Shown piece after piece: positions 4,116 to 18,336 of a stretch of 64,000 nucleotides of DNA. Source of the stretch: Thermoplasmata archaeon (GTDB lineage: Archaea > Thermoplasmatota > Thermoplasmata > Lutacidiplasmatales > UBA184). Each line of letters opens with the position of its first letter. The stretch's first letter is position 1. The DNA is taken from NCBI GenBank assembly GCA_021798415.1, contig JAJZGO010000002.1:159-64158 (forward strand), in the 5' to 3' direction. The notes under the pieces are model-generated. The model saw only the letters and a program-made list of their open reading frames with translations. It did not search any database and was not told where the DNA came from. The translations under genes and the position numbers were made by a program.

Positions 4116-5864
4116 TCAGACGGCCCCCGACCAGGCCCCGGGAAGCCGGCCGGTCGAGCGGATCTCGGCGAGCGACGCGTGGACGACGCCTTCCCGAGCC
4201 TCATGGGCGACCACCTCCTCGGCGGCGCCCACGGGCACCGACCGGGGGCCCTCCTCGGGAACCGGGTGCCCCGAAAAGCGCAGGATGACGAGCGGGGCGA
4301 AGATCATCGGCACGAGCCAGACCCCGTTGAAGACCGTGGCGAGCGGGTTGAACAGGACCATGCCCGCGAGCAGCGCTCCGTCGAGCGCGAGGGCGTAGCG
4401 CGAGATCGAGAGGACTTCGCCGAGGCCGAGCGCCGCCTCGCTCTTCGGCGTCACGGGCACCTGGCCGAGGCGCCGTCGCAATAGGGCGACCATGCTGATC
4501 GCCTCGTACGGCAGCGAGACCGCGCTCACCGCCGCGCTCAGCCAGCGGTGGCGCCAGTAGGTGCCCCACCCGATCCCGCATTGCCGGTAGACGAGCACGG
4601 TCGGGATCGTCGAGACGACTCCGACCACGAGCAGGAACCGGAAGAGCGGGATCGACCAGAACGTCGTGAGGGGATGGGCCGCGAATTGTCCGAGGAAGGC
4701 GAGCGCGGCGGCCGGGGTCGACGCGAACCCGTAGACGGTGAGGAGCATCCCGAGCGGCAGGATGAGGTTCGTGAAGTGTCCCAGCGGGGTCTGCCAGAGG
4801 TGGAACTTCCGCGAGCGGCTCAGGTTCGAGCGGCGCGAAAACTCGATGAACTCCATCGCGCCGCGGGTCCACTTGTTCTGGCGCTTGATGAACCCGCGGA
4901 CGTTCTCGGGCATCGCCTCGTAGGTGTGCAACGGGACAAAGCGGGAGTGCCACCCCCGGTCGGCGAGGGCGACGGCCGTCGCGAAGTCCTCGGAAACGTA
5001 CCCCTCGACGAAGCCTCCGATCGTGTCGACCGCCGCGCGTCGCACCAGGCAGTTGTGACCGTAGCAGAAGACCGTGTCGAGCGCGTTCGCGAGCCGGCTC
5101 TCCCACACGAACTGGCCGACCCGGGACATCGGGGCGAGCGTCTGGACGAACCGGGTGTCGAAGTTCCAGATGTTGACGAGTCCCTGGAAGATCCCGACCC
5201 GGGCCTGGGCGGGGTGTTCGGCGTACTTGAGCGCTTCTCGCACCCAGTCGGAGGGCAGGAAGGAGTCCGAGTCGAGCAGGACGAAGTACTCGTACGCGGC
5301 CCCGTGACGGGCGTACCAATCGTTGATCGCCCCGGCTTTGAAGCCGCGGCGCTCGGGGCGGCGGAGCACCGTGTACCCCCGTTCCCCCGCGATCCGATCG
5401 ACGACCTCCCGGGCCGCGGGCTCGCTCGAGTCGTCGAGCACGTAGACGTCCACGGGGTAGTCCTGGTGGATCGCGCGCAGGCACTCCGGCACGACGTCGT
5501 TCATCGTGGCGTAGAGGACCGCGACCTTCGGTCGGGTCGCGAGCTCCGCGAGCGCGGGGAGGTCCCCGTGGCGGCTCACGAGCGCGACGACCTGACGGGC
5601 GAGCCCGTACGCCGCCCCCACGAACAGCGCGGCGAGGACCCCGAAGAGCGCGATCGACGCGGGGTGGCTCCACCGGATGACGAAGAACGCCATGCTCCCG
5701 ACGAGGGTCGCGTAGATCCCCGCGAACAGCCCGTAGAAGAGACGGCGGACCCCGGGAAGGTTCGGAGGGGCGCCCTCGTAGCGGATCGGCACGGCGTTGC
5801 CGGGCCGGTCGGGCGGCAACCGGCCCGCGAGCGGACCCGAGAGCAATCGCCGCGTTCCTGGCAT
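4116..5864 (-). CDS. Membrane-embedded processive GT2 glycosyltransferase (cellulose synthase / OpgH-like)
   Basis: GT-A core with DDSSEP, DSDS and ED motifs plus a QNKWTRG (QxxRW-like) motif. Multiple TM helices at both ends. The promoter-like conserved 35-bp element sits 27 bp upstream on this strand. Confidence 0.8.
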   Translation of the reverse strand: MPGTRRLLSGPLAGRLPPDRPGNAVPIRYEGAPPNLPGVRRLFYGLFAGIYATLVGSMAFFVIRWSHPASIALFGVLAALFVGAAYGLARQVVALVSRHGDLPALAELATRPKVAVLYATMNDVVPECLRAIHQDYPVDVYVLDDSSEPAAREVVDRIAGERGYTVLRRPERRGFKAGAINDWYARHGAAYEYFVLLDSDSFLPSDWVREALKYAEHPAQARVGIFQGLVNIWNFDTRFVQTLAPMSRVGQFVWESRLANALDTVFCYGHNCLVRRAAVDTIGGFVEGYVSEDFATAVALADRGWHSRFVPLHTYEAMPENVRGFIKRQNKWTRGAMEFIEFSRRSNLSRSRKFHLWQTPLGHFTNLILPLGMLLTVYGFASTPAAALAFLGQFAAHPLTTFWSIPLFRFLLVVGVVSTIPTVLVYRQCGIGWGTYWRHRWLSAAVSAVSLPYEAISMVALLRRRLGQVPVTPKSEAALGLGEVLSISRYALALDGALLAGMVLFNPLATVFNGVWLVPMIFAPLVILRFSGHPVPEEGPRSVPVGAAEEVVAHEAREGVVHASLAEIRSTGRLPGAWSGAV

Positions 5865-5890
5865 CGGGCTCGCATGGGGCCGAGGACTCT

Positions 5891-5930
5891 ACCTCGGTTT
5901 TGGCGCAAGGCCCGTAACGATTGGTGCGGG
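5891..5930 (-). promoter_or_regulatory. Conserved ~35-bp cis-element copy B (reverse orientation, upstream of the GT2 gene)
   Basis: The reverse complement reads GCCCGCACCAATCGTTACGGGCCTTGCGCCAAAACCGAGG. It is about 33/37 identical to copy A at 6831-6870, with its A-rich end about 27 bp from the ATG at 5864. Confidence 0.6.
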
Positions 5931-5980
5931 CCCCGTATTCGAGGGAAAGTCACTTACCTTCTCGGACGCGTGGGGGCCGC

Positions 5981-6271
5981 ATGGACCTTCTTACGGTCTT
6001 CCTCGCGGTCGTCCTCGCCGGATTATCGGCCACCCTCTCCGGGATCGGCGTCGCGGCGGCGTCGCGCTACCGCGACCCGAGGCTCGCGCTCGTCTCGGCC
6101 GGGCTCGCGGTCCTCGCCGTCGTCGGCGGCCTCGACGTCTTGAACCAGGTGTCGCCGCGCTACGGCGAACCGTTCGAGGTCGCGCCGGTGCCGCTCGGGC
6201 TGACGGTGCTAGCGGTCGCGCTCCTCTACGTCGCGCTCGTCCGGGGCGCCGCACGGACCCCATCCCCGTAG
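5981..6271 (+). CDS. Small 3-TM membrane protein (cassette copy A), translationally coupled to the downstream regulator
   Basis: MDLLTVFLAVVLAGLSATLSGIGVAAASRYRDPRLALVSAGLAVLAVVGG...TVLAVALLYVALV has three hydrophobic helices. The stop at 6271 is 1 nt before the regulator ATG at 6273. It is paralogous to 13555..13833. Confidence 0.55.
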   Translation: MDLLTVFLAVVLAGLSATLSGIGVAAASRYRDPRLALVSAGLAVLAVVGGLDVLNQVSPRYGEPFEVAPVPLGLTVLAVALLYVALVRGAARTPSP

Positions 6272-6272
6272 C

Positions 6273-6797
6273 ATGGAGGGACTGGTCGCGCAGCCCACCC
6301 GCCGGAAGATCGTTGACGTCGTCACCGATCACCCGGGGTCGAGCGCGCGTGAAGTGCAGCGGCGGGCCTCGCTCGGCTGGGGCGAGACCGCGTACCACTT
6401 AGACCAGCTCACGCGGGCCGGGGCGCTGCGTCGCGAGCGCGGCGGCCGCCGCGACTACTACTTCCCTTCGACGATGACCTGGGAGGACCGACGGCTGTTC
6501 CAGGTCCTCCGCAGCGGGACCGAGCGACGGCTGTTGCTCGAGCTGAGCGCGCGGCCCGGCCGCACGCTCGCCGAGCTCAAGGAGGCGACGGGGCTCAGCC
6601 TCTCCACGACCTCCTTTCACCTGCGCCACCTGCTCGCGCAGAGTGCGGTCGAGGGGTTCCGGGACGGGCACCTCCGCCGCTACCGTCCGACGCGCCCGGA
6701 ACGGGTCGCCGCCCTCGTGACGCGGTACCGCGAGTCGTTCGAGGACCGGCTCGTCGACCGGTTCGTGGAGGCCTGGAGCGGCCTCCTCGGAGCGTGA
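6273..6797 (+). CDS. Tandem winged-HTH (ArsR-like) transcriptional regulator, cassette copy A
   Basis: Two repeats of an ArsR-type wHTH, REVQRRASLGWGETAYHLDQLTRAGALRRER and LAELKEATGLSLSTTSFHLRHLLAQSAVEG. It is a clear paralog of 13837..14364. Confidence 0.75.
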   Translation: MEGLVAQPTRRKIVDVVTDHPGSSAREVQRRASLGWGETAYHLDQLTRAGALRRERGGRRDYYFPSTMTWEDRRLFQVLRSGTERRLLLELSARPGRTLAELKEATGLSLSTTSFHLRHLLAQSAVEGFRDGHLRRYRPTRPERVAALVTRYRESFEDRLVDRFVEAWSGLLGA

Positions 6798-6830
6798 GTC
6801 GATGAAGGGACGCTCTGGGCTTCGCACCAA

Positions 6831-6870
6831 CGGTTACGGGTCTTGCGCCAAAAGGGAGGTATCTCGACGA
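6831..6870 (+). promoter_or_regulatory. Conserved ~35-bp cis-element copy A (upstream of the surface-protein gene)
   Basis: TTCGCACCAACGGTTACGGGTCTTGCGCCAAAAGGGAGGT. The A-rich end (CCAAAAG) is about 26 bp upstream of ATG 6889, the spacing of an archaeal TATA box on a leaderless mRNA. The upstream 20 bp are conserved in copies B and C. Confidence 0.6.
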
Positions 6871-6888
6871 CGTCCGTGGTCGAACGTG

Positions 6889-7878
6889 ATGCCGGGTACC
6901 GGGAAACCCCTTCTGACGGCGATAGCGCTCGCCGTCGCGCTCACGATTTCGCTCGTCGGGGCCGTCGGACCGGCCATCGGTCACGGCCTCCCCGCGGCTT
7001 CGAACCGCGCCGGAGCGGCCGCGTTCTCCCTGACGAACGGTCTCGTTCGAGCTGACTTTCCGACGGCGGCGCCGTCGTTCACGCTCACGTCGGTCGCGAA
7101 CGCATCGCTCGGGCTCTCGCAGTCCCTCGGCGGGCTCGCCGAGGTGAACGGCACCGGCTACATCGTCGCCTTCGCTCTCTTCGGCGGCCCCGGGGTCGCC
7201 TGGAGCGGGTCGACCGGGGGCTCGTCCGCGTCGACCTGGGTGCATCTCGCGGCGGCCGTGCCGGCCCGTCTCGCGAGCGGCGAGTGGGAGTCGGGGGACG
7301 ACGCGCAGGAAGGCGGGAACTCCTCCCTCGGCTCGGTGAACGTCTCCCTGACGTTCACCCTGAACAGCTCGTCGGGCCCCTCGCCCACGACCGTCGGGTA
7401 CCTGCTCAACGTCACGGGCTGGCCGTGGATTTCCACGCTGGATTCCCTCGGGGTCGAGGTCCTCACGAACACGAGCGGGCCGTCCGGGTACTGGCAGTCG
7501 AACGGGGCCAACTCGATCACCGAACGCTCGAGCACGACCGGCGGCACCGTCGCGACGTACGCCTGGGGGACGTCCGCGACCGCGACGTACGCGAGCGGCC
7601 AGGAGTCGGACAGTTCCGTAGGGGCGTACCACAACGTCTCGACGAACCGGCAGAGCTCGCTCGTCCGCCTCGACTTCGGCACCGTGACCGGGGGGTACCG
7701 CTCGCTCGGCTACGACCCTTGGCTCACCCTCGTGGTCGGCAGCCCCCTCTCCCGTCTCGTGCCCGCCTGGCTCTTGGGCCCGGACGCGCTCGTCACGATC
7801 GGCGCCGGTACGGCGCTCTCGATCGCCCTCGCGGCGGTCGCGCTCCGGCGGCGCCGGGCGCCCGAGAGCGAGCTCTGA
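6889..7878 (+). CDS. Secreted Ser/Thr/Gly-rich surface protein with C-terminal TM anchor (cassette copy A)
   Basis: Signal peptide MPGTGKPLLTAIALAVALTISLVGAVGPA. Many N-x-S/T sequons (NASL, NGTG, NSSL, NVSL, NSSS, NVTG, NTSG). C-terminal TM LVTIGAGTALSIALAAVAL followed by RRRR. The ORF track's earlier ATG at 6802 would include the conserved element, so the start is uncertain. Confidence 0.65.
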   Translation: MPGTGKPLLTAIALAVALTISLVGAVGPAIGHGLPAASNRAGAAAFSLTNGLVRADFPTAAPSFTLTSVANASLGLSQSLGGLAEVNGTGYIVAFALFGGPGVAWSGSTGGSSASTWVHLAAAVPARLASGEWESGDDAQEGGNSSLGSVNVSLTFTLNSSSGPSPTTVGYLLNVTGWPWISTLDSLGVEVLTNTSGPSGYWQSNGANSITERSSTTGGTVATYAWGTSATATYASGQESDSSVGAYHNVSTNRQSSLVRLDFGTVTGGYRSLGYDPWLTLVVGSPLSRLVPAWLLGPDALVTIGAGTALSIALAAVALRRRRAPESEL

Positions 7879-8261
7879 GCCCGAAAGTCACGCCTCGCAC
7901 GCCTCGCCTGCCTCCGTGGGGGCGAGCGTGCGCTTCTCGTTCGTCCCGGCACCGCGAGCCCTTGGGAGACCAGCATCGCGCCCAGGGCCAGACGCCCGAC
8001 AATGGGCCCGAGGTAGGCGAACCAGAAGTAGGATCCCGGCGGCGATCGCGGGCCGCCCACCCGGATCCGGAAGGCGCTTCCGGTCTCCACGCCCGCCCGT
8101 GACGAGGACGGCCCCGAGAACGTAGGGGCCGATCCCGATCAGCATGCGGTTCCTTTCGCATTTTCTGGCAAGATGCGTCCTCCGGGACGGAGGGGACGGC
8201 CGAGGAGGTCGGCATCCTCTGTCGCGACGCGGAGCCGGCGAGGCGAGGGGGACGTCTCCCG

Positions 8262-8711
8262 CTAGCGGGGGCGGTGTTCCCGCCCGCCCCGAACGACGAG
8301 GACCGGGCACGGAGCCTCGTTGACGAGCCCGGAGGAGACGCTTCCGAGGAGGAGGCGGGACCCGCGGGAGAGCCCCCGCGAGCCCACCACGACGAGGTCC
8401 TGGGGGTGCCGGTCCAACCACTCGAGGAGCGCGCGGAGCACGTCGCCCCACAGGAAGACGGTCTCGACCTTGGTGGCGCCCCGGGCGATGGCCTTCTCCC
8501 GTACCTCGTCGAGGATCGTCGCCATGGCGCGCCCGTCGTCGTCGAGCGGGACGAGCCCCTCGAGATACGGGTCGGCGGACGGCCGACGCGCCGGCCGCAC
8601 CACGACGAGGGTGAGCGAGGAGCGGAAGCGGGCCGCGAGCTCGCTCGCCACCTGGCAGGCGCGTCGGGCCTCGCGCGACCCGTCGAAGCCGACAAGGATC
8701 CGGTCGAGCAT
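8262..8711 (-). CDS. Universal stress protein (UspA family)
   Basis: ILVGFDGSREARRA...LVVVGSRGLSRGSRLLLGSVSSGLVNEAPCPVLVV is the canonical Usp fold motif. Confidence 0.85.
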   Translation of the reverse strand: MLDRILVGFDGSREARRACQVASELAARFRSSLTLVVVRPARRPSADPYLEGLVPLDDDGRAMATILDEVREKAIARGATKVETVFLWGDVLRALLEWLDRHPQDLVVVGSRGLSRGSRLLLGSVSSGLVNEAPCPVLVVRGGREHRPR

Positions 8712-8898
8712 CCGTTCTCAACTTCCCAAGTCGACGAACGCTCTTGAGCCGGCGGGCCGCACGTCCCGGACCGGACCGCGAGCGGAGCCCGGGCCCCCAC
8801 CTCGGCCCGGGGTCAGAAGGACCTCCCCCGGGTCCTCGCGGGCCCGGGGTCGGGAAGAAAGGGTTGGTGCCGTAGACCGTCGACCGAGCGAAGCCCCT

Positions 8899-11800
8899 CT
8901 ACGACGTCGGAGGCTTGTCCGGGCCTTCGCTCCAGGTGTTCGAACCCGAGCTCCCGCTCGCGGGCGAGCCGGGGCTGCTCGCGCCGGCCGGAGGCGTCCA
9001 AGCCTCGGGGGGCGACGACGGGGGCGTCGACTTGCCTCCTCCGCGGCGGAGGAAGAGCGCAATCAGCCCGACGACGAGCGCGATCACCGCGACCAGGAGC
9101 GCGAGCGCGAAGTAGTTGTTGAGGTCCGACTTCGTCGCGAGCGGCGCCGGGTTCGACGGCGAGTACATCCCCGAGATGCTGGTCGACTGGCCGGCCACGG
9201 TCACGCTGCCGTTCCCGCCCTTCACGTTGAAGCCGCCGACCGAGCCGAGCGCGTAGGTGAACGTTCCGTTCGGCTCGTAGAAGACGAGCGTCGTTCCCGA
9301 GGTCGACTGGGTCACGCCGTTGACGGTCGCGTTCCAGCTCGTCCCGCCCGGGAGGCCTCCCTCGCTGACGGTGACCGCGTAGGTCAACCGCGAGAAGGTC
9401 ACCCCGACCAGATAGGCGTTCGGTCCCGCAGCGACCGTCCCGGTCGACGGGGACGCCGCATAGCCGGGCACCGGTCCGACCGCGTAGGGGTAGCTGCCCA
9501 TCGGCACCGAGAAGGCGATCGACGCCGCCGAGGAGGTCTCGGCGATGCCGTCGAAGTTCACGGCCCAGCTCGTCCCGGCCACGAGGCCGGTCTCGTTGAA
9601 CGTGACCGTGAACATCTGGTACTCGTCCGGACCGATCGGGTAGTAGTCCCACACGCCGCTCGACACGTAGTACGGGGCGAGGACGCCGTACGAGGTGTAC
9701 GTGTGCCAGTCCGCCCAGTAGTTGCCCACGCCGTTGAGGTCGAACGAGTTGTAGACGTAGCTCCACGCCTGGACGTGCGTGGGGTCGTAGGTGCGGGTGG
9801 CGCCGTTGTCGCCCACGAAGTTGTTGTTGTAGACGAGGTTCCCTTCCCCGTAGGCGATGTAGACCCCGAAGCTCGAGTCGCCGACGAACGAGCTTCCCGT
9901 GACCAGGTTCGACTGGGCGTTCTCGTTCATCTCGACACCGACCACGTCGTGGAACGCTCCGATGTTCGAGAGCGTGGCGTACTCGGTTCCGTTCAGGAGG
10001 ACCCCGAACTCTCCACCGGTTGCGTTGACGTTCGAGAAAGTGACGCTTCCCGTGAGCGCCGTACCCGACCCGCCATCGTAGACGGCGGCGGGGTAGGTGG
10101 TCGCGGTGACGTTCGACACGGTCGTCAGGCTATCGAGGGTCGTCACGACCGCGGCCAGGGCGGGCGCGCCGAAAGTAGTGAACACGAACCCCGGCGCCCA
10201 GGGCCCGGAAAGGGTCGCGTTGCTCGCCGTGACCCCGTTCACGCTCGCGTCGGTGTCCTGGTTGAGCCCGACCGCGAGCGACTGGCCCGAGACCGTGGTC
10301 TGGTCGACGGTGACCCAGGACGAACCGAGCGCGAAGACCCCGACCGAGCCGTCCGAGGCCGTGGTCCCGCGCACGTTCACGTTGTGGGAGCCTTGGATGA
10401 TGGTGCCGACGTCTTGGCCCGAGACCGTGACCGTCGTCACGTTCACGTCCGTAGACGCCAGGATCACCGAGCCCACGCTCGCGGGTCCGGCGGCCGAGAT
10501 CCCCGAAAGGGAGACGAACGAGGAGCCCGAGACGAGCGCCGCCTGGCTTCCCGTGGTCGCGTTGACGCTCGAAACGTTGACCCATTCGGAACCGAGCACC
10601 GCCACGCCGGAACTCGAGTTCTCGGCGGTGAGGCCCGTGAGCGTCCCCGACATGAAGTTCTCGAACACGACGCCCGTGCTGCCGTTCGCCACGACGTTCG
10701 AGACCGAGGCGCTCGAGCCCCCGAGGAAGCCGACCGCGATGGGGCTCCCGTTCGTGGCGGTCACACCGTTAACCGAGCTCGTCGTAACGCCGTACCCGAC
10801 GACCCCCGCGGAGCTGCTCGCGTGGACGGTCGTGACGGTGAGGCCGATCCCTCCGGTCGCGTAGACAGCCTCCGAACCGGTCTCGGACGATACGCCGCTC
10901 AGGGTGGTGGCGTTGGCCCAGAAACCGTCGAACCCGACCGAACCGAAGGAGGCGCTCAGGGTGGTGAACGTCCCCGCCGAGCCGCCCTCGTCGAAGACGG
11001 CCGCGGAGCCGAACTCGGCGGTAAAGTTGGTCCCGACCGCATCGGCGGAGGCGATCACGCTGAACACCGCCGCGCCGAAGCCCGAGACCGAGTTCGTCAC
11101 GGTCGTGTGCGGCGAGGCGGCGGCCCAGACTCCGAACGAGTCGTCCTGGGACACGACGTTCGAGATGCTCGCCCCGGTGTCGTTCCAGAGAGAAATCGCT
11201 CCTCCCTGGACCACCCCGGCGGGGATCAGGACGCCGGCCAGGTTGAGGTTCGAGAAGGCATCGTTCGTCCCGTCGTAGACCACATACTGTTGACCGAGGT
11301 ACGGAATGTTCCCGGTGTACCCGAACGGCGACTGGAACCACTGGGTGATCCCGTGCCAGTTGGGCCCGACGTAGACGTTGTTGATGTCGACCGCCGCCGA
11401 GAACCCGCTCGCCTGCACAAGGCTGAAGGTCGGGAAGCCCCAGTCGTTCAATCGATTGAACGTGAGGTTCACACGCACCTCGAGATTCTTGAAGGTGTAC
11501 GGGGCGCTCGCGCTACCCCCGACCGCGGCGGCCAACGCGGACGCCTGAGCGGCCGACCCCATGTAGAGGGGTGCGTCCAAGACCGCGGGAGCGGCGACCA
11601 TCGTGACCGTGTCGGTGGTCGATGCCGAGAACGGCGTGCCGGCGAACTGATGGTAGCCATCGGCGAACACCGTGAAGTTGTAGCCGAAGAGCACCGGCGG
11701 CAGGTAGGTGCTGACGGTCCCCGATAGGTCCGTCGGCGCCCAGCTGAAATTGTACGTCTGGGCGAGAGCAGGACCGACGAAGACGAAGCCGTAGCTCGGC

Positions 11801-13146
11801 GTCACGTGCGCCGTGAAGTGGATGCTCCCGCTGCCGGTCTGGAGGGTGTTCCAGAGCCCGTAGAGCAGCGAGGGACCGGTCGTGACGTTCTCGGTCGCGC
11901 CGAACCACGTGCTGGCCACCCCGACCGCGGTCTCGCCGGTGTCGCCACCGTAGTCGAATGCGGCCGGGACCCCGGAGTAGGTCGGGCCGACCTGGCGCAT
12001 CAGGTTCAGGCTGCCGTTCACCGAGTTGATGACGGCGTTCGAGCCCGCGCCCGGGCCGGTGAAGACGAGCTCGGAGTCGTAGAACGCGCCGATCGGCGTC
12101 GCCGTGTTGCCGTTCACCAGGAAGTCCGCGGGCAGCGGGGGTGCGATGGAGTTGAAGACCACCGTGTCGTAGACGCCCGCGAAAACGTGGCCCGGTTCCG
12201 TGACCCGGTAGCCGAACGTCACCTGGCTGCGTCCGCTCGGGTTGTTCGAGACGTTGTTGTAGAGGGCGATCGTGACCGGGAACGCGAGGGGCATCGTGGG
12301 CCCGAGGTCGTAGTAGAACTGGCCCGAGACGAACGTCCCGTTGAAGGAGTACAGCGTCCCGGGGTTCAGCGAGGGGCCCGAGAAGTTCCAGACGTTGTCG
12401 ATGAACTGGAGCTGGTGGCCCGAGAAGTCGATGACGTTCTGGGTCCAGAATGCCGCCGTGGTCGAGCCGGGGATCGAGACGTTGGTCGTCACGGTGTTGA
12501 GCTGGACGCCCGACTGGTACGGGCTCGACGCTTGGTTGGCGGGGAGTCCGTTCCAGTAGTACCCACCGGTGTCTTCGTAGAGCTGACCGGCGGTCGCGTT
12601 GTAGCTGTTGAGCGTGAATTGGCCGTCAAAGGAGGGGGTCCAGTACTGGTAGGGGCCGCCCGAACCGATCCCGAGGTCCCCCACGCCCATCGGGGCCGGA
12701 GAGGCCGTGTAGAACGGGCTGATCAGCTGGCCAGGGTTCGAAGCGGGGTGGGCGAGGAGATTGTAGTTCGGAAGGTACGCCGCGTAGGACGGCACTCGGC
12801 CCGTGGAGATCGAGTTCAGGACGCTCGTGACGGTCGAGGTCGCCGCGAGACCCGCGGTCGACTGGGGAGATGCGCCGGGAGAACCGGGCGAATAGTGCCC
12901 CGGGGAAAAGGGCGTCGAGGTCGGCACGGTCGGGGACGAGCCTTTCGCGGCGGCGAAGTTCCCGCCCCATGGGGTCGAGCCTACGGCCGCCGAGTGAACG
13001 CCCGACCCGCTCGCGCTCGTCTGGGACGACCCCGCGATGGACTGGGCGCCGGCAAACGCCCCGGCGGGCAGCACCATCAACGCGGCGATTACGAAAACGA
13101 TCGGCAATGCCCAGACTGCTTTCCGTACGGACGGCAACGCGGCCAT
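8899..13146 (-). CDS. Giant (1415 aa) secreted right-handed beta-helix repeat surface protein with C-terminal TM anchor
   Basis: N-terminal signal peptide WALPIVFVIAALMVLPAGAFA. Long tracts of degenerate roughly 22-residue repeats rich in N/G/S/T/V (NVTTVTVSGQDVGTIIQGSHNVNVRGT...) typical of a parallel beta-helix or pectate-lyase fold. More than 40 N-x-S/T sequons. C-terminal TM ALALLVAVIALVVGLIALFL followed by RRGGGK and a Pro/Ser tail. Confidence 0.8.
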   Translation of the reverse strand: MAALPSVRKAVWALPIVFVIAALMVLPAGAFAGAQSIAGSSQTSASGSGVHSAAVGSTPWGGNFAAAKGSSPTVPTSTPFSPGHYSPGSPGASPQSTAGLAATSTVTSVLNSISTGRVPSYAAYLPNYNLLAHPASNPGQLISPFYTASPAPMGVGDLGIGSGGPYQYWTPSFDGQFTLNSYNATAGQLYEDTGGYYWNGLPANQASSPYQSGVQLNTVTTNVSIPGSTTAAFWTQNVIDFSGHQLQFIDNVWNFSGPSLNPGTLYSFNGTFVSGQFYYDLGPTMPLAFPVTIALYNNVSNNPSGRSQVTFGYRVTEPGHVFAGVYDTVVFNSIAPPLPADFLVNGNTATPIGAFYDSELVFTGPGAGSNAVINSVNGSLNLMRQVGPTYSGVPAAFDYGGDTGETAVGVASTWFGATENVTTGPSLLYGLWNTLQTGSGSIHFTAHVTPSYGFVFVGPALAQTYNFSWAPTDLSGTVSTYLPPVLFGYNFTVFADGYHQFAGTPFSASTTDTVTMVAAPAVLDAPLYMGSAAQASALAAAVGGSASAPYTFKNLEVRVNLTFNRLNDWGFPTFSLVQASGFSAAVDINNVYVGPNWHGITQWFQSPFGYTGNIPYLGQQYVVYDGTNDAFSNLNLAGVLIPAGVVQGGAISLWNDTGASISNVVSQDDSFGVWAAASPHTTVTNSVSGFGAAVFSVIASADAVGTNFTAEFGSAAVFDEGGSAGTFTTLSASFGSVGFDGFWANATTLSGVSSETGSEAVYATGGIGLTVTTVHASSSAGVVGYGVTTSSVNGVTATNGSPIAVGFLGGSSASVSNVVANGSTGVVFENFMSGTLTGLTAENSSSGVAVLGSEWVNVSSVNATTGSQAALVSGSSFVSLSGISAAGPASVGSVILASTDVNVTTVTVSGQDVGTIIQGSHNVNVRGTTASDGSVGVFALGSSWVTVDQTTVSGQSLAVGLNQDTDASVNGVTASNATLSGPWAPGFVFTTFGAPALAAVVTTLDSLTTVSNVTATTYPAAVYDGGSGTALTGSVTFSNVNATGGEFGVLLNGTEYATLSNIGAFHDVVGVEMNENAQSNLVTGSSFVGDSSFGVYIAYGEGNLVYNNNFVGDNGATRTYDPTHVQAWSYVYNSFDLNGVGNYWADWHTYTSYGVLAPYYVSSGVWDYYPIGPDEYQMFTVTFNETGLVAGTSWAVNFDGIAETSSAASIAFSVPMGSYPYAVGPVPGYAASPSTGTVAAGPNAYLVGVTFSRLTYAVTVSEGGLPGGTSWNATVNGVTQSTSGTTLVFYEPNGTFTYALGSVGGFNVKGGNGSVTVAGQSTSISGMYSPSNPAPLATKSDLNNYFALALLVAVIALVVGLIALFLRRGGGKSTPPSSPPEAWTPPAGASSPGSPASGSSGSNTWSEGPDKPPTS

Positions 13147-13554
13147 GTCGGTCTTTCGTGGCTCGTTCGACTATACAAACCTAGGTGCGGCTCAGGAAAC
13201 GCCGGCACGTGGCCGGCCCCCAGGGTGCCCGCGGGTCGGCCGCGCGCCGGGCCGAGATAAGGAATCGAGCCTCGCCGGCCTTAAGCCGGCCTGGGGAGCT
13301 TTCCGACCGGGACTCTGGGGTCGCTGGAGGACCCGCCCGCCTCCCAAGGCGGATGTCGAACGCCCAGGGTCCGGAGGGTACCGACCCCGACCGCCCGCTC
13401 CCGAACCCCGGACGTGGTTCTCGGAAACTACCGAACGCGGATGCGGGCCGAGGTCCGCCGAGTAGGGTCGGTCCCTCACGAGCGTTCCGGGTCGCCCGGC
13501 CGATGTGATCGGCCGCGAACCAACTCCTTAAGCCGCGGGGCCTTCTCGGGGCCC

Positions 13555-13833
13555 GTGAGCCTCCTCGAGCTCTTCGTCGTGGTCCTGGTGACCGGCGTGG
13601 CGCTCCTGAACGCGGGGGTGCCGCTCGCCGCGTGGGCCCGCTCCCGGGACGGCCGCTTCGTCCTCTTGGCGGGAGGGAACCTCGCTCTCGCCGCATTGGG
13701 GGGCCTTTGGCTATGGGGTCAGCTTCCGGGAAGCCCTCCGCCGTATACCGAAGTCCAGCTGCCCGCGTTGTCGATCGTATTGGTCGCGGTTCTCCTCGGC
13801 CTGGCGGCCACCCTCTGGCCCCGTCATGTCTGA
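13555..13833 (+). CDS. Small 3-TM membrane protein (cassette copy B), coupled to the downstream regulator
   Basis: GTG 13555 gives VSLLELFVVVLVTGVALLNAGVPLAAWARSRDGRFVLLAGG...IVLVAVLLGLAATLWPRHV, which aligns along its length with 5981..6271. CTTAAG lies 25 bp upstream. The stop at 13833 is 3 nt before the regulator ATG at 13837. The ORF track starts earlier at 13414 with a non-hydrophobic extension. Confidence 0.5.
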   Translation: MSLLELFVVVLVTGVALLNAGVPLAAWARSRDGRFVLLAGGNLALAALGGLWLWGQLPGSPPPYTEVQLPALSIVLVAVLLGLAATLWPRHV

Positions 13834-13836
13834 GCG

Positions 13837-14364
13837 ATGGAGGAAGACCCCCTCGCTCTCGAAACGCGGCGTCGGCTGTACGAGGCGGTGCGGATGGCCC
13901 CGGGCACCGGGGCCCGCGAGGTCCAGCGCCGTGTCGGTACCGGTTGGGGCGAAACGGTGTACCACCTCGATCGTCTGACGACGTCCGGGCTGCTCCATCG
14001 GGAACGCTCGGGATATCAGGACCATTACTTCGTCGCGACGGTCCCTCTCGCGGACCGAAGCCTTCTCAAGATCACCCGCTCCCGTTCGGCGCGCCGACTT
14101 CTGATCGCCCTCCTCGAAGCCCCGGGGTCGACCGTCCCGGACCTCGAGACGCGCACCGGACTGAGCGAGGGCCGTCTCTCCGTCCATCTCCGGCGACTGG
14201 CGGAGATAAGGGTGGTGCGGACGGGACGCGCCGGCCGGCTGCGCACCTTCGAGCTCACCGACCGTGAGCGAGTCCTCCGGACGCTCGTCGCCTTCCGCCG
14301 AGGGTTCGCCGACGAGTGGATCGAGCGTACCCTCGAGACGTGGTCGGAGCTCTTTCGTCCGTAG
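13837..14364 (+). CDS. Tandem winged-HTH (ArsR-like) transcriptional regulator, cassette copy B
   Basis: AREVQRRVGTGWGETVYHLDRLTTSGLLHRER and VPDLETRTGLSEGRLSVHLRRLAEIRVVR. It is about 40% identical to 6273..6797 along the full length. Confidence 0.75.
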   Translation: MEEDPLALETRRRLYEAVRMAPGTGAREVQRRVGTGWGETVYHLDRLTTSGLLHRERSGYQDHYFVATVPLADRSLLKITRSRSARRLLIALLEAPGSTVPDLETRTGLSEGRLSVHLRRLAEIRVVRTGRAGRLRTFELTDRERVLRTLVAFRRGFADEWIERTLETWSELFRP

Positions 14365-14372
14365 CGCCGTCG

Positions 14373-14415
14373 GGTTCGGACCAACGGCTTACGGTCTTGG
14401 ACCAAAAGCAGGGAC
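14373..14415 (+). promoter_or_regulatory. Conserved ~35-bp cis-element copy C (upstream of the second surface-protein gene)
   Basis: TTCGGACCAACGGCTTACGGTCTTGGACCAAAAGCAGGGAC aligns with copy A with only a few substitutions and indels. It lies about 26 bp upstream of the candidate GTG start at 14441. Confidence 0.55.
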
Positions 14416-14440
14416 AAGGGGAACGCCCTGCTCTCCTCCG

Positions 14441-15433
14441 GTGGCCGACCGACGAACGCCCCACGGAAGTCGCCGCCGAGGCCGGTGGGACTTCCGGGCG
14501 TTCTTCGGGGTCGCCGCGACCGCGCTTGTCCTCGCGGTCACGCTCGTGCCGTTCGGGTCGGGATCCTCGCTGGGGGCGGACTGGTCCTCGACCACGCTCG
14601 CCTGGAGCAACGGCGTGACCCAGTGCATCTTCGTCCCCGGTGCCCCGACGGTCGCCGTGTCGGCGATGAGCCTCGCCGGCTCGGGTCTCTCGACGACCCT
14701 CACGTCTCTCGACGAGGTCACCGCGTCCGGCAACCTCACCGCGGTGGCGGCCCTCTCTTCGGCGACATGGAACTCGACGAACCTCAGCGGCCCGGATCGG
14801 TTCGACATGGCCTACGCCGCGGACGTGCTGATCGTCTCCCCGGTCAATCCCGCGCGGGTCCTCGGCTCGGTCGGTCTGCGAGTGGACTACCTCCTTCCCG
14901 CCTACGCGGATTCCCCTGGCGTCAACCTCCGTAACGTCACTCAGGAGGTCACCATCACGGACTGGACGTGGCAGGGAGCCGGCGACCGGCTCGCCCTTGG
15001 TGTCTCCCTTTGGCCGACGTTCACCGCGCTGGAACGTCTCACCGCCCCTTCGCCAACGAGCTATTCGGTGACGAGCGTCGAGGTCCAAACTGGGGAACCG
15101 CGGGAGTCCGTGGACCTCGGTCGGTCGGCCAACATCAGCCTCCCCGCAAATGGGACCGCGCTGGTTCCCGTTACCCCCGAGGTCCAGATCGCGGGGCAGG
15201 GCACCTACGCCTCGGTCGGCGTGTGGGTCGGCGCCGTCGCCGGAGAGTTCCGGTCGCTCTCGTACGTGTCGGTCATCTCGCTTCCCGTGCCCAAGACCCT
15301 CGCGGGACTTCCGCTCTACGACTACGCGGCCGTGGGCGGAGCGGGATTGGTCGCCGTGGCCGCGCTCGCTCTGACGGCGCGCCGAGTGCGCCGGAGACCT
15401 TCCGACCTCACCTTCGTGGAGGAGCAACTGTGA
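14441..15433 (+). CDS. Secreted Ser/Thr-rich surface protein with C-terminal TM anchor (cassette copy B)
   Basis: A GTG 14441 start gives a basic n-region plus hydrophobic core FRAFFGVAATALVLAVTLVPFG. Sequons NLTA, NSTN, NLSG, NVTQ, NISL, NGTA. C-terminal TM AVGGAGLVAVAALALTA followed by RRVRRR. The ORF track start at 14264 overlaps the regulator and is less likely. Confidence 0.6.
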   Translation: MADRRTPHGSRRRGRWDFRAFFGVAATALVLAVTLVPFGSGSSLGADWSSTTLAWSNGVTQCIFVPGAPTVAVSAMSLAGSGLSTTLTSLDEVTASGNLTAVAALSSATWNSTNLSGPDRFDMAYAADVLIVSPVNPARVLGSVGLRVDYLLPAYADSPGVNLRNVTQEVTITDWTWQGAGDRLALGVSLWPTFTALERLTAPSPTSYSVTSVEVQTGEPRESVDLGRSANISLPANGTALVPVTPEVQIAGQGTYASVGVWVGAVAGEFRSLSYVSVISLPVPKTLAGLPLYDYAAVGGAGLVAVAALALTARRVRRRPSDLTFVEEQL

Positions 15434-15653
15434 ACGACGGGGGAACGGTGGAGAAGAAGCAGGCCGACGATCGTGCGATTGCCGTGGACGAGCGAGAGCG
15501 GAGATCCCATTCGGATTCACCTTCCGGGCCTCCTCCCGCCCAAGCTTCCCGCCCCCACGGGTCGATCATCCTTCGGAGGGTCTTCGACACCTTGCGCGGC
15601 GGCCGCCGACCGCGACGCGGCCCGGTGACGGACCCGGCCCCATGGGAGGTCCC

Positions 15654-16292
15654 ATGACCGTCTCGAACGGTCGGATCGTTCCCCGGTCGGCGGGACTCCT
15701 ACGGACCCTGCTGATCGTCGGGGTGGTCGTTGGGTTGCTCGCACTCCCGCTTGCCTTGGGCCTCGATCCCACGACGCCGAGAGGTCCCCAGGAGCTTGCG
15801 CCGGCGACCACGACTGCCATCAGCGTGCAGGTAACCTCGACGCTCAAATTCACGCCGGACGTGCTGGATGTCGTCCCGGGTGCCCTCGTTCAACTCGTCG
15901 TGATCCAGGAGGCGTCGATCCCCCACACTTTCGTCCTGTCGCCCGTCGCGAACTTCACGATCCCTGCGAACGACACGCCCGCCCAGCTCTTCGAGTTCTT
16001 CAATGCCCACCCACCCCTCGTGAACCTCAGCCTGCCGGGAACCCCGGGGGCCCGAGCGTACGCGAACTTCACGGCGCCGTCGGTCGGAACGTATGAGTTC
16101 GTCTGCGAGATCCCCGGGCATTTCCAGTCCGGGATGCACGGGATTCTGGTCTCGTCGGTCGCCGCTCCGTCGAACGGATCATCGACTCTCTTTACACCGA
16201 CCGTGCTCATCGTCCTCGGCGCCGTGGTGGTCGTGGTCGGAGTCGGTTCCGGCCTCGCTCTCTGGCGACGTTCGCGGCGCTCGCCCAAGTGA
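15654..16292 (+). CDS. Type-1 (blue) copper protein, halocyanin/plastocyanin-like cupredoxin, with N-terminal signal/TM and C-terminal TM anchor
   Basis: Copper site H...C-x2-H-x4-M: HTFVL...YEFVCEIPGHFQSGMHG. N-terminal hydrophobic LLRTLLIVGVVVGLLALPLALG. C-terminal TM LIVLGAVVVVVGVGSGLALW followed by RRSRR. Confidence 0.8.
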   Translation: MTVSNGRIVPRSAGLLRTLLIVGVVVGLLALPLALGLDPTTPRGPQELAPATTTAISVQVTSTLKFTPDVLDVVPGALVQLVVIQEASIPHTFVLSPVANFTIPANDTPAQLFEFFNAHPPLVNLSLPGTPGARAYANFTAPSVGTYEFVCEIPGHFQSGMHGILVSSVAAPSNGSSTLFTPTVLIVLGAVVVVVGVGSGLALWRRSRRSPK

Positions 16293-16344
16293 GGCCTGAT
16301 GGGCCAGGGGTCTTCGGGAAACGTGGCGGCACCGGAGGGATAGA

Positions 16345-18336
16345 TTGAGCGAAGGCCCAGGAGTCGTCGACGGGGGAGGCGCGGCCCGGCGGGCGGGCGA
16401 TGGGGGTACGGAGGCTCGCCTCGAGCTCGCGGGGGGAGTCGTAGCCTACAACGAAGAGGCCCACATCCAGCGGGCTCTGGAGTCGCTCCTGGCCCAAGAC
16501 CTTCCGGACGGGGTCCGCTGGGGGCAGATCTGGGTCGTCGCGAGCGGCTGCACGGACCGAACGGTCGAGATCGCCCGGGGAGTGGCCGCCCGCGACCCGA
16601 GGGTCATGGTCGTCGTCGAGCCGGAGCGGACCGGAAAGGCGCGGGCCCTTCGCGAGATCTTCCACCGCGCCCGGGGCCACGCGGTGGTGCTCCTGAACTC
16701 GGACGCCGAGGCGGCGCCGGGAGCCGTAGCCGAACTCCTTCGGCGCGCACGAGGGCACTCCCCTCCCTACGCCGTCATGGCCCGCCCCGTCGTGTCCCCC
16801 GACGCCCCGGGTCGCATGGCCCCGCTACTGCGATTGATGTGGGACCTCCATCACGAGTTCCATCTCCACCTCGCGTCGGAAGGCGGAGGAGCTCACCTCT
16901 CCGACGAGCTTCTCCTCGTCAGCCTCGACCCTCACCCGCCGCTTCCGGAGGGGATCGTCAACGACGGCTCGTACTTCGGGGTCTGGCTGGCGCAGCACGG
17001 AGGGCGACGACTCTACGCGCCCGGGGCCCGCGTGCAGATCGCGATCCCGACGCGACTCACGGACCACCTCCACCAGCGCCGGCGGATCCACGTCGGGAAC
17101 TCCCAGGTCACCGCGGCCCTCGGTCGACGGCCGAGCACCCTCGTGGGACACGCGCGGTCTACGCCGGGCGCGGTGGCGAGGGTGGTCCAGCGATCGGCGC
17201 GCCGTCAGACCCGGGGCTGGCGACGGTTCGTGGCGCTGACGGCCCTCGAGCTCGCGGCGGCTACCCTCTCCTTCTGGGACCGACTGCCCCCGCCGAAGGA
17301 CCACGTCCGCTGGCAGCGGATCCGACCCCCGGCTCCGCGAACCGCCCCTCGCTCGCTCTCGCGCGCTCGTCTCTCGCACAACGCGAGGGGACTGACCGCC
17401 CCGCCTCTCGAGCTGCGGGTAGCGACCTTGGTGGACGTGGCGGCGCGATTCGGGACGGGCATCGCGCTGCCGGACCTCATCTCCCTCCTCCCTCCCGACG
17501 GGCCCTTTACGCCGGGGGACACTCGGGGCTGGCTGGAAGGCCATCCCAGCCTCGCGCGAGTGGACGGTGACCTGGTCCTTGCCCCACGCGCGACCACGGT
17601 CGGGCAGGACGAGCGGCGGACCCGAGGAGAGGCGTCCCTTCGCCACGCGCTCGGGCTGTTCAACGGACCGCTTCGACCGACCCGCAATTGGGTTCGCTGC
17701 GTCTCCGTCACCGGCTCGGTCGCCTACGGCGAGCCGCAGCCGGAGGACGACCTGGACCTGTTCGTGGTCGTTCGAAAGGGGGCGCTTTGGTGGTTCCTGG
17801 GCTACACGTACCTGGCCCTGCGGATCGAGCGGTGGCGTCGGGGCCGCGGGTTCGGACCGGTCGCGTGCTTCAATTACACGATCGAGGACTCGACGGCCGC
17901 CGAGGCACTGACCGAACGCCGTGACTTCCTGACGGCCCGCGACGCGCTCTCGGCGAAGCCTATCCTGGGAGCGTCCTACTATCAGGGACTCCTCGCCCGC
18001 TGCCCGTGGATGGCCACCGAGATCCCGCGATTGTATGCGGTCCGCGCTCGACCTTCCGACGACCCCGATTCCCTCCCCGCGCCGATCGCGCTCCGGGTCG
18101 CGGACGCGGTCGTCTACCCTCTCCTCGCGACGTACCTTCAATTGGCCGGTCTCTGGAGGAACGCGCGGAATCGTTCCAACGAGACCGGGGCCTTCCGGAC
18201 GGTGACGCGATTGGGACGCATCGCCTTCGTTTCCCGTCGATTCGAGGCTCTCCGTTCCCAGTACGTGGAAGGGCGCGAGCCGTCGGAGGCATCGACGGGG
18301 GTAACGTATCCGTCGGCGCTCCCGTCCGCCCGATGA
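16345..18336 (+). CDS. GT2 glycosyltransferase fused to a C-terminal minimal (Pol-beta-type) nucleotidyltransferase domain
   Basis: N-terminal GT-A domain GGVVAYNEEAHIQRALESLLAQ...VLLNSDAE. C-terminal segment VTGSVAYGEPQPEDDLDLFVVV matches the G[SG]x9-13DxD nucleotidyltransferase signature. No in-frame stop separates the two domains. Confidence 0.7.
   Translation: MSEGPGVVDGGGAARRAGDGGTEARLELAGGVVAYNEEAHIQRALESLLAQDLPDGVRWGQIWVVASGCTDRTVEIARGVAARDPRVMVVVEPERTGKARALREIFHRARGHAVVLLNSDAEAAPGAVAELLRRARGHSPPYAVMARPVVSPDAPGRMAPLLRLMWDLHHEFHLHLASEGGGAHLSDELLLVSLDPHPPLPEGIVNDGSYFGVWLAQHGGRRLYAPGARVQIAIPTRLTDHLHQRRRIHVGNSQVTAALGRRPSTLVGHARSTPGAVARVVQRSARRQTRGWRRFVALTALELAAATLSFWDRLPPPKDHVRWQRIRPPAPRTAPRSLSRARLSHNARGLTAPPLELRVATLVDVAARFGTGIALPDLISLLPPDGPFTPGDTRGWLEGHPSLARVDGDLVLAPRATTVGQDERRTRGEASLRHALGLFNGPLRPTRNWVRCVSVTGSVAYGEPQPEDDLDLFVVVRKGALWWFLGYTYLALRIERWRRGRGFGPVACFNYTIEDSTAAEALTERRDFLTARDALSAKPILGASYYQGLLARCPWMATEIPRLYAVRARPSDDPDSLPAPIALRVADAVVYPLLATYLQLAGLWRNARNRSNETGAFRTVTRLGRIAFVSRRFEALRSQYVEGREPSEASTGVTYPSALPSAR

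Follow-up and report, generated by a model that had tools for sequence, protein, structure and literature searches.

How might a small membrane protein and a DNA-binding regulator, encoded within a few nucleotides of each other, act together on the gene of a surface protein that follows them? The question is raised by a 64,000-nucleotide (nt) stretch of DNA from a Thermoplasmata archaeon (GenBank assembly GCA_021798415.1, contig JAJZGO010000002.1, positions 159 to 64,158; below, the window), in which a three-gene cassette of this kind, here called mem-reg-sec, occurs as copies A and B. On balance, we favor the answer that the cassettes are autonomous transcription units for envelope genes, each autoregulated and each with a regulator modulated by its membrane partner in a manner resembling SdpR/SdpI. 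This answer draws on the strict pairing of mem and reg and on an operator-like repeat whose half-sites follow the regulator subfamily. The original prediction of a duplicated cassette held, as all six open reading frames (ORFs) claimed for it are present at the coordinates given and the window contains exactly two copies:

5981..6271, plus strand: memA, a three-helix membrane protein of 96 amino acids (aa), identified by its ORF, composition and orthologs.
6273..6797, plus strand: regA, a 174-aa tandem winged-helix regulator with a PF24266 N-domain, an ArsR-type second domain and a conserved C-terminal helix.
6889..7878, plus strand: secA, a type-I membrane-anchored surface protein (329 aa) comprising a signal peptide, a predicted beta-supersandwich ectodomain, a C-terminal transmembrane (TM) helix and an RRRR-PESEL tail.
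13555..13833, plus strand: memB, a 92-aa three-helix membrane protein, the B-type paralog with a GTG start, identified by its ORF, family alignment and substitution pattern.
13837..14364, plus strand: regB, a 175-aa tandem winged-helix regulator, the B-type paralog, with a PF24266 match.
14441..15433, plus strand: secB, a 330-aa C-anchored surface protein and secA paralog, identified by ortholog alignment, a match of 5.8e-99 to the sec hidden Markov model (HMM) and an ortholog in locus L065; its GTG start was placed by ortholog alignment and the spacing to the operator described below.

The GC content of the window is ~70%, rising to 0.81–0.92 at the third codon position of each of the six ORFs. 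The stop codon of mem is separated from the start of reg by 1 nt in copy A and by 3 nt in copy B. The small membrane ORFs are genuine and evolve as coding sequence. They are conserved in relatives, with memA orthologs 48–67% identical, and in many datasets independent gene callers also predict the small ORF, with a length of 92 or 96 aa. Compared with the near-identical loci L018 and L065 from metagenome-assembled genomes (MAGs), synonymous codon changes exceed non-synonymous ones (11:5 for memA, 16:10 for memB), and the changes fall mostly at third positions. The helix-by-helix likeness expected of the two membrane proteins is seen within a 28-member family alignment, at 34% identity; BLAST by itself gives a weak match (E = 0.018). 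MemA is predicted to adopt an N-out/C-in topology and has a conserved RxRDxR loop after the first TM helix.

A locus survey, in which one genome per species was scanned, returned 80 loci, all from Thermoplasmata MAGs. At essentially every one, a 92–100 aa ORF with three TM helices ends between −14 and +13 nt from the regulator start, and the flanking genes differ. At three loci obtained by exact protein look-up, a 96–99 aa ORF abuts the regulator and is followed by an ORF of 334–339 aa without a Pfam match, in unrelated surroundings. We detected 180 regulator homologs, nearly all 170–180 aa long, and those with a named source all come from Thermoplasmata MAGs; clustered at 50% identity (E ≤ 1e-10), the family comprises 3,290 clusters in Thermoplasmata and Halobacteria. 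One MAG, YP4.bin89, encodes a regulator 98% identical to regA and has copy B on the same contig, and several genomes contain two or three paralogous cassettes. On haloarchaeal plasmids, full-length regulator homologs of 172–180 aa (30–40% identity) have the same two-domain layout, and at seven of seven loci a 91–117 aa protein overlaps the regulator start by 4 nt; these small proteins belong to DUF7471 (E ~1e-30). A stand-alone regulator, found without its membrane partner, and a small ORF lacking conservation in relatives were outcomes named beforehand as speaking against the prediction; the small ORF proved to be conserved, and in the 80 Thermoplasmata and 7 haloarchaeal loci the regulator never occurs without it. 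We conclude that the membrane-protein/regulator pair is obligate and probably translationally coupled.

The regulators, expected to be about 40% identical, are 44% identical (E = 2e-43), and both exceed the gathering score of 31 for PF24266 (HTH_HVO_0163_N), with 67.1 bits for regA and 51.5 bits for regB. The second, ArsR-type helix-turn-helix is matched by HTH_20, HTH_24 and HTH_5 at residues 82–127, and the AlphaFold2 model of regA (pLDDT 87) has two winged-helix domains followed by C-terminal helices. A helix with the pattern DRLVDRF..W..LL at the C-terminus (regA residues 142–174, window positions 6696–6794) is among the best-conserved segments of the protein and is kept in the haloarchaeal homologs L086–L092, yet its pLDDT in the monomer model is <50; this combination fits a partner-binding element, as which we therefore read it. 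In two homologs, P0216 and P0270, a signal peptide or N-terminal ectodomain plus a TM helix is fused directly to the tandem winged helix-turn-helix (wHTH), and these proteins would represent membrane-anchored one-component versions of the regulator. Another homolog, P0140, has three wHTH repeats. In B. subtilis, a module of three transmembrane segments (TMS) in SdpI is believed to sequester the ArsR-type autorepressor SdpR (PMC2910880). The TM-fused homologs and this precedent support a membrane link, and the pair of a membrane partner and a transcription factor, as proposed originally, is retained by analogy as the best reading of the core.

Which genes might such a regulator control? A sequence of ~45 nt occurs at three sites in the 64-kb window, where 0 are expected by chance. 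It precedes secA and secB and, on the minus strand, a divergent glycosyltransferase family 2 (GT2) gene. These sites, the associated promoter elements and the GT2 gene are as follows:

5890..5937, minus strand: operator site 1, a tandem direct repeat oriented towards the GT2 gene (GCACCAA ... TTGCGCCAAAA), found by nhmmer (E = 1.4e-11) and pattern search.
6813..6862, plus strand: operator site 2, a tandem direct repeat between regA and secA whose end lies 35 nt from the secA ATG (nhmmer E = 7.6e-13).
14369..14414, plus strand: operator site 3, a tandem repeat of the B type (GGACCAA ... TTGGACCAAAA) whose end lies 32 nt from the secB GTG (nhmmer E = 1.5e-9).
5946..5958, plus strand: AAAGTCACTTACC, a candidate TATA-like element that precedes the ATG of the memA-regA operon by ~23 nt.
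13517..13532, plus strand: candidate autoregulation site of the memB-regB promoter, in which a single operator unit is combined with a TATA-like box (GAACCAAC-TCC-TTAAG).
4116..5864, minus strand: GT2 processive glycan-synthase-like membrane glycosyltransferase of 582 aa, oriented divergently to memA and predicted to be controlled by regulator A.

The motif is a tandem direct repeat of the unit CGG-N3-4-TG(C/G)RCCAA, with the CCAA cores 21 bp apart, i.e. two helical turns, and its CCAAAA end lies about 33–36 nt before the start codon at all three sites (33 nt for the GT2 ATG). With an nhmmer profile, the motif was found directly after the regulator stop codon at nearly all Thermoplasmata loci, with the position of operator site 2 kept in orthologous loci, and in many loci also upstream of the gene divergent from mem. 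The genes behind it encode members of the sec family (at least 50), GT2 glycan-synthase-like proteins, PQQ/BamB-like propeller proteins, PKD-domain proteins and a small membrane protein, all of them envelope proteins; GT2 orthologs are found behind the motif at L018, L006, L009, L013 and L023. The GT2 gene of the window matches Pfam Glyco_trans_2_3 and Glycos_transf_2, and its matches to the NCBIfam MdoH, PgaC and CelA models are below the cut-offs. An Rfam scan of positions 5500–16500 (E ≤ 1) identified no known RNA in the intergenic motifs. Scanning metagenomes with an 18-base operator core gave mostly chance matches in low-GC DNA. The extended motif was present in seven Thermoplasmata-like matches. 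Five of these have a regulator within ~1 kb, the sixth is at the end of its contig and the seventh lies on a 1.8-kb contig, maybe too short to include a regulator; no distal regulon members were found among the core-scan matches listed.

The half-sites differ between the cassettes, with GCACCAA/GCGCCAA in cassette A and GGACCAA twice in cassette B, and the difference extends to the family. Regulators with Ala at position 40, in the first recognition helix, are accompanied by GC[AG]CCAA in 30/30 loci, and B1-type regulators, which have a different second recognition helix, by G[GA]ACCAA in 25/26; the B-type consensus, GGACCAA, was derived from 27 loci. Both half-sites of a motif change together. 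Half-site and regulator subfamily go together (GC[AG]CCAA vs GGACCAA).

The mem-reg promoters contain a single unit beside a TTAAAC-like box, in the same 35-nt register as the sec promoters. In B-type orthologs, TTTGAACCAAT-N3-TTAAAC is kept and its CCAA lies 35 nt from the GTG. A-type orthologs have an AACCAA-ATAC element comparable to the TATA-like element of memA, at the distance from the start seen there. The single unit at this register suggests autoregulation; operator site 1 also lies just upstream of the memA promoter. The short distance from the TATA-like element to the memA ATG suggests a leaderless transcript. Short palindromes of differing sequence (CCGAGG..CCTCGG, CAGGG..CCCTG, CCCATC..GATGGG) follow directly after the operator in several 5′ regions and could be hairpins of the 5′ untranslated region or chance. 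They lie at:

about 5874-5891, minus strand: palindrome after the operator.
14409-14430, plus strand: palindrome after the operator.
about 6579-6605 of locus L003: palindrome after the operator.

Taken together with the domain structure of the regulator, the motif allows a mechanism to be proposed. The regulator, with two ArsR-like winged-helix domains in one chain, would recognize the ~15-nt unit CGG-N3-4-TG(C/G)RCCAA; plausibly, each unit would be bound by one chain, whose two domains would occupy adjacent major grooves. Tandem units would serve sec in both copies and the GT2 gene as well in copy A, the proximal unit abutting an A-rich promoter element, and the single unit in the mem-reg promoter would mediate autorepression of the pair. 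Repression, including autorepression, is likelier than activation, because the sites overlap the presumed position of the TFB-recognition element (BRE) and the TATA box. Since paralogs A and B would read different half-sites, no cross-talk between the two circuits is expected. The three-helix membrane protein would hold the regulator at the membrane, or release it, in response to an envelope or extracellular cue, by analogy with SdpI and SdpR. The circuit would have the surface protein as an output, which may in turn act back on it.

Several points weigh against this reading. First, the locus counts overstate independence, because the covariation of half-site and regulator represents few phylogenetic events, essentially the switch of one clade. 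Second, at 70% GC, TATA and BRE elements can be assigned only by guesswork, and the same holds for the sign of regulation, which depends on them. Third, the family ties of the membrane protein are loose: memA scores 14 bits with the DUF7471 (PF24283) profile vs a cut-off of 27, and only 6 of the 28 family members match it (best E = 0.002). Alignment of the Thermoplasmata membrane proteins with haloarchaeal DUF7471 by hhalign gives a probability of 88% (E = 3e-6, 62 columns), a value that is not decisive for TM proteins; the two groups share their position upstream of a PF24266 regulator, and a remote relationship is plausible. The 28 membrane proteins matched 41 Pfam families (E ≤ 1), and SdpI is absent from the 25 matched most often. 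Finally, no natural fusion of mem to reg was found among the top 150 representatives of the regulator family or 120 mem homologs.

What, then, is the surface protein to this circuit? By BLAST, secA and secB share a single 48-aa segment (E = 4e-4); B-type sec orthologs of other genomes match a mainly A-type sec HMM at 1e-25 to 1e-42. The sec ectodomain has no sequence-family match. In the structure model, an all-beta domain lies between the signal peptide and the C-terminal TM helix (core pLDDT ~85, mean 72), and it superposes on members of the galactose-mutarotase-like beta-supersandwich group (the GH65 N-domain, the GLMP luminal domain, YidC P1 and aldose 1-epimerase). With an identity of only 5–12% to these proteins, the likeness is one of fold alone in a model of moderate confidence; at this level, the ectodomain models as a galactose-mutarotase-like beta-supersandwich, carbohydrate-binding-like. 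Neither secA nor secB matches an NCBIfam CTERM model for archaeosortase-type sorting (PGF-CTERM and relatives). Beyond the basic cluster, the tail is conserved for 10–17 aa, with RRRRxPPExxL in A-type and RRxRRxPSxLxYVEE in B-type proteins. In one sub-clade (L025, L027, also L026 and L031, L030, L032, L039), the TM helix is followed by a cytoplasmic CxxC-17/18-CxxC zinc ribbon, which implies an intracellular role for the tail.

A sec homolog adjoins the pair in 77/87 sources (~88%). It mostly follows the pair in the same orientation, but is convergent in some sources and precedes the pair in one; it is missing from ~10% of Thermoplasmata loci, and none lies beside the seven haloarchaeal pairs inspected. 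The original placement of the surface protein within the cassette therefore stands in part: it is best seen as a regulated target with its own predicted operator, and it is dispensable for the pair. The close association and the conserved cytoplasmic tail and zinc ribbon would also be compatible with a three-component transmembrane signaling complex, in which sec acts as a sensor whose supersandwich ectodomain binds a glycan or envelope ligand and relays a signal through its TM helix and tail to mem, which then releases or captures the regulator. All three proteins would then be obligate partners, comparable to carbohydrate-sensing anti-sigma systems of the RsgI type. We regard this arrangement as unlikely. 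Owing to its operator-bearing promoter, sec is most clearly a regulated target and behaves as an output; where it is absent, other genes, e.g. the GT2 gene in L023, replace it behind the operator, and some clades have it on the other strand or ahead of the pair.

A second alternative follows from the fold of the regulator. The NCBIfam ArsR/SmtB metalloregulator subfamily model is passed by regA (59.5 bits, cut-off 55), and its closest structural neighbors are SmtB, CzrA, BigR and ArsR. Haloarchaeal pairs often adjoin genes for plastocyanin, multicopper oxidase and metal transporters (L088 and L091 among the loci), their DUF7471 proteins have a conserved HH..EH motif, and HVO_0163, an ‘ArsR-type’ protein, rises under hypochlorite stress (PMC10294847). 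In the window, cassette B is followed by a gene for a membrane-anchored cupredoxin (15642-16292, plus strand; weak GVDTG-CTERM sorting-domain match, E = 0.067), and a copper or redox link is possible. All this could be accommodated by a conventional metal or redox sensor of the ArsR/SmtB type, with mem a co-regulated accessory such as a metal-handling or efflux helper. However, the 14-sequence regulator alignment contains no conserved Cys, and the invariant His42 and His116 are confined to recognition helices; Thermoplasmata mem proteins do not have the His motif; the genes behind the operator encode surface and glycan proteins rather than metal resistance; and no operator was found by nhmmer at the cupredoxin gene. 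A metal or redox sensor is consequently an improbable explanation of the cassette.

The size and topology of mem bring to mind a third possibility, that of a selfish or addiction module of two genes, in which mem is a holin-like or depolarizing toxin, the helix-turn-helix protein an autorepressing antitoxin and the surface genes are incidental. Several copies per genome, many on haloarchaeal megaplasmids, in variable surroundings would be in line with this, as would a match of memB to Phage_holin_2. That match is weak (21.4 bits vs a cut-off of 32, E = 3e-4) and restricted to memB, and the membrane proteins have no match in PHROG or PADLOC searches, so that a holin identity was rejected. The operator also serves functionally coherent envelope genes beyond the promoter of the pair, signatures of mobile elements are absent from the gene order and surroundings in the window, and the subfamily structure is long-standing, with co-diverged operators. 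We consider a toxin module very improbable. A phage or defence origin of the cassette was likewise rejected, as PHROGs and PADLOC returned only generic wHTH matches.

The two copies do flank a 1415-aa surface protein, as had been noted: a Usp gene and the gene for this thermopsin/NosD-type protein (8899-13146) lie between them on the minus strand. The latter was considered as a cassette target and rejected; control by the cassette is without support because nhmmer found no operator upstream of the gene. A giant thermopsin-domain surface protein is convergent to sec both here and, in a different genome with unrelated gene context, in L004 (7587-11282, minus strand). Just 3′ of the cupredoxin gene is a glycosyltransferase-like ORF of 663 aa (16345-18336, plus strand), called GT2-like from its N-terminal sequence alone; if this is true, the stretch from 4 to 18 kb would be an envelope-biogenesis neighborhood.

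The membrane-partner/transcription-factor reading extends, tentatively, beyond the window. It is possible that the pair of a small membrane protein and a tandem-wHTH regulator is a widespread archaeal membrane-sequestration switch, with a role akin to that of bacterial extracytoplasmic function (ECF) sigma/anti-sigma pairs or SdpR/SdpI, that its paralogs are insulated by co-evolved direct-repeat operators, and that in Thermoplasmata it governs the synthesis of surface glycan and of anchored glycan-binding proteins. To our knowledge, little is understood of membrane-linked transcription regulators in archaea, and operators have been defined for very few archaeal regulons. The analysis yields an obligate regulator/membrane-protein pair common to two archaeal classes and a precise predicted operator, whose subfamily half-sites invite specificity-swap experiments. 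The predicted targets form a coherent set, in which a glycan synthase stands beside surface proteins of the supersandwich, PKD and propeller types. The homologs in genetically tractable haloarchaea make the mechanism testable. If membrane sequestration is true, a role could be assigned to two Pfam families that so far lack a described function, and it would hint at how uncultivated Thermoplasmata control their cell surface.

How much of this system had been described? The original prediction did not recognize the module, which proved right in part. Because the regulator belongs to PF24266 and its haloarchaeal partner to DUF7471, the core pair is already catalogued, as uncharacterized. The three-gene cassette of Thermoplasmata, its operator, the paralog-specific half-sites and the predicted envelope regulon appear to be undescribed, and a functional study of DUF7471, PF24266 or the cassette was not found in the literature. 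The closest relatives are the PF24266/DUF7471 pairs of Halobacteria, which share the regulator architecture and length, the C-terminal helix and the small membrane ORF immediately upstream, overlapping or 1–3 nt away. They differ in that Thermoplasmata mem proteins fall below the DUF7471 threshold and do not have the HH..EH motif, and in that the haloarchaeal pairs have copper and redox genes instead of a sec homolog as neighbors; the Thermoplasmata operator was not found in the haloarchaeal loci inspected. An analogous TM protein/regulator pair of H. volcanii, one with DUF7521, is strongly induced in a quorum-sensing mutant.

With ArsR/SmtB metalloregulators, the cassette regulators have in common the ArsR-type winged-helix fold and the profile match. 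They differ in having two wHTH domains per chain and no conserved metal-ligand Cys or His outside the recognition helices. ArsR/SmtB operators are usually 12-2-12 inverted repeats, whereas the operator predicted here is a direct repeat. As for SdpR/SdpI, neither protein of the cassette belongs to the family by sequence: the similarity of regA to the SdpR model NF033789 is weak and below threshold (28.8 bits vs a cut-off of 100, E = 8e-7), and SdpI is not among the most frequent Pfam matches of the membrane proteins given above. The gene order is reversed. In place of a homodimer, the regulator has two fused wHTH domains in tandem, and in place of toxin immunity the predicted outputs are surface and glycan proteins; a cognate extracellular peptide is known for neither mem nor reg. 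What the two systems share is an ArsR-type wHTH protein encoded in one operon with a small polytopic membrane protein, a three-TMS module and autoregulation, which for the cassettes is our proposal.

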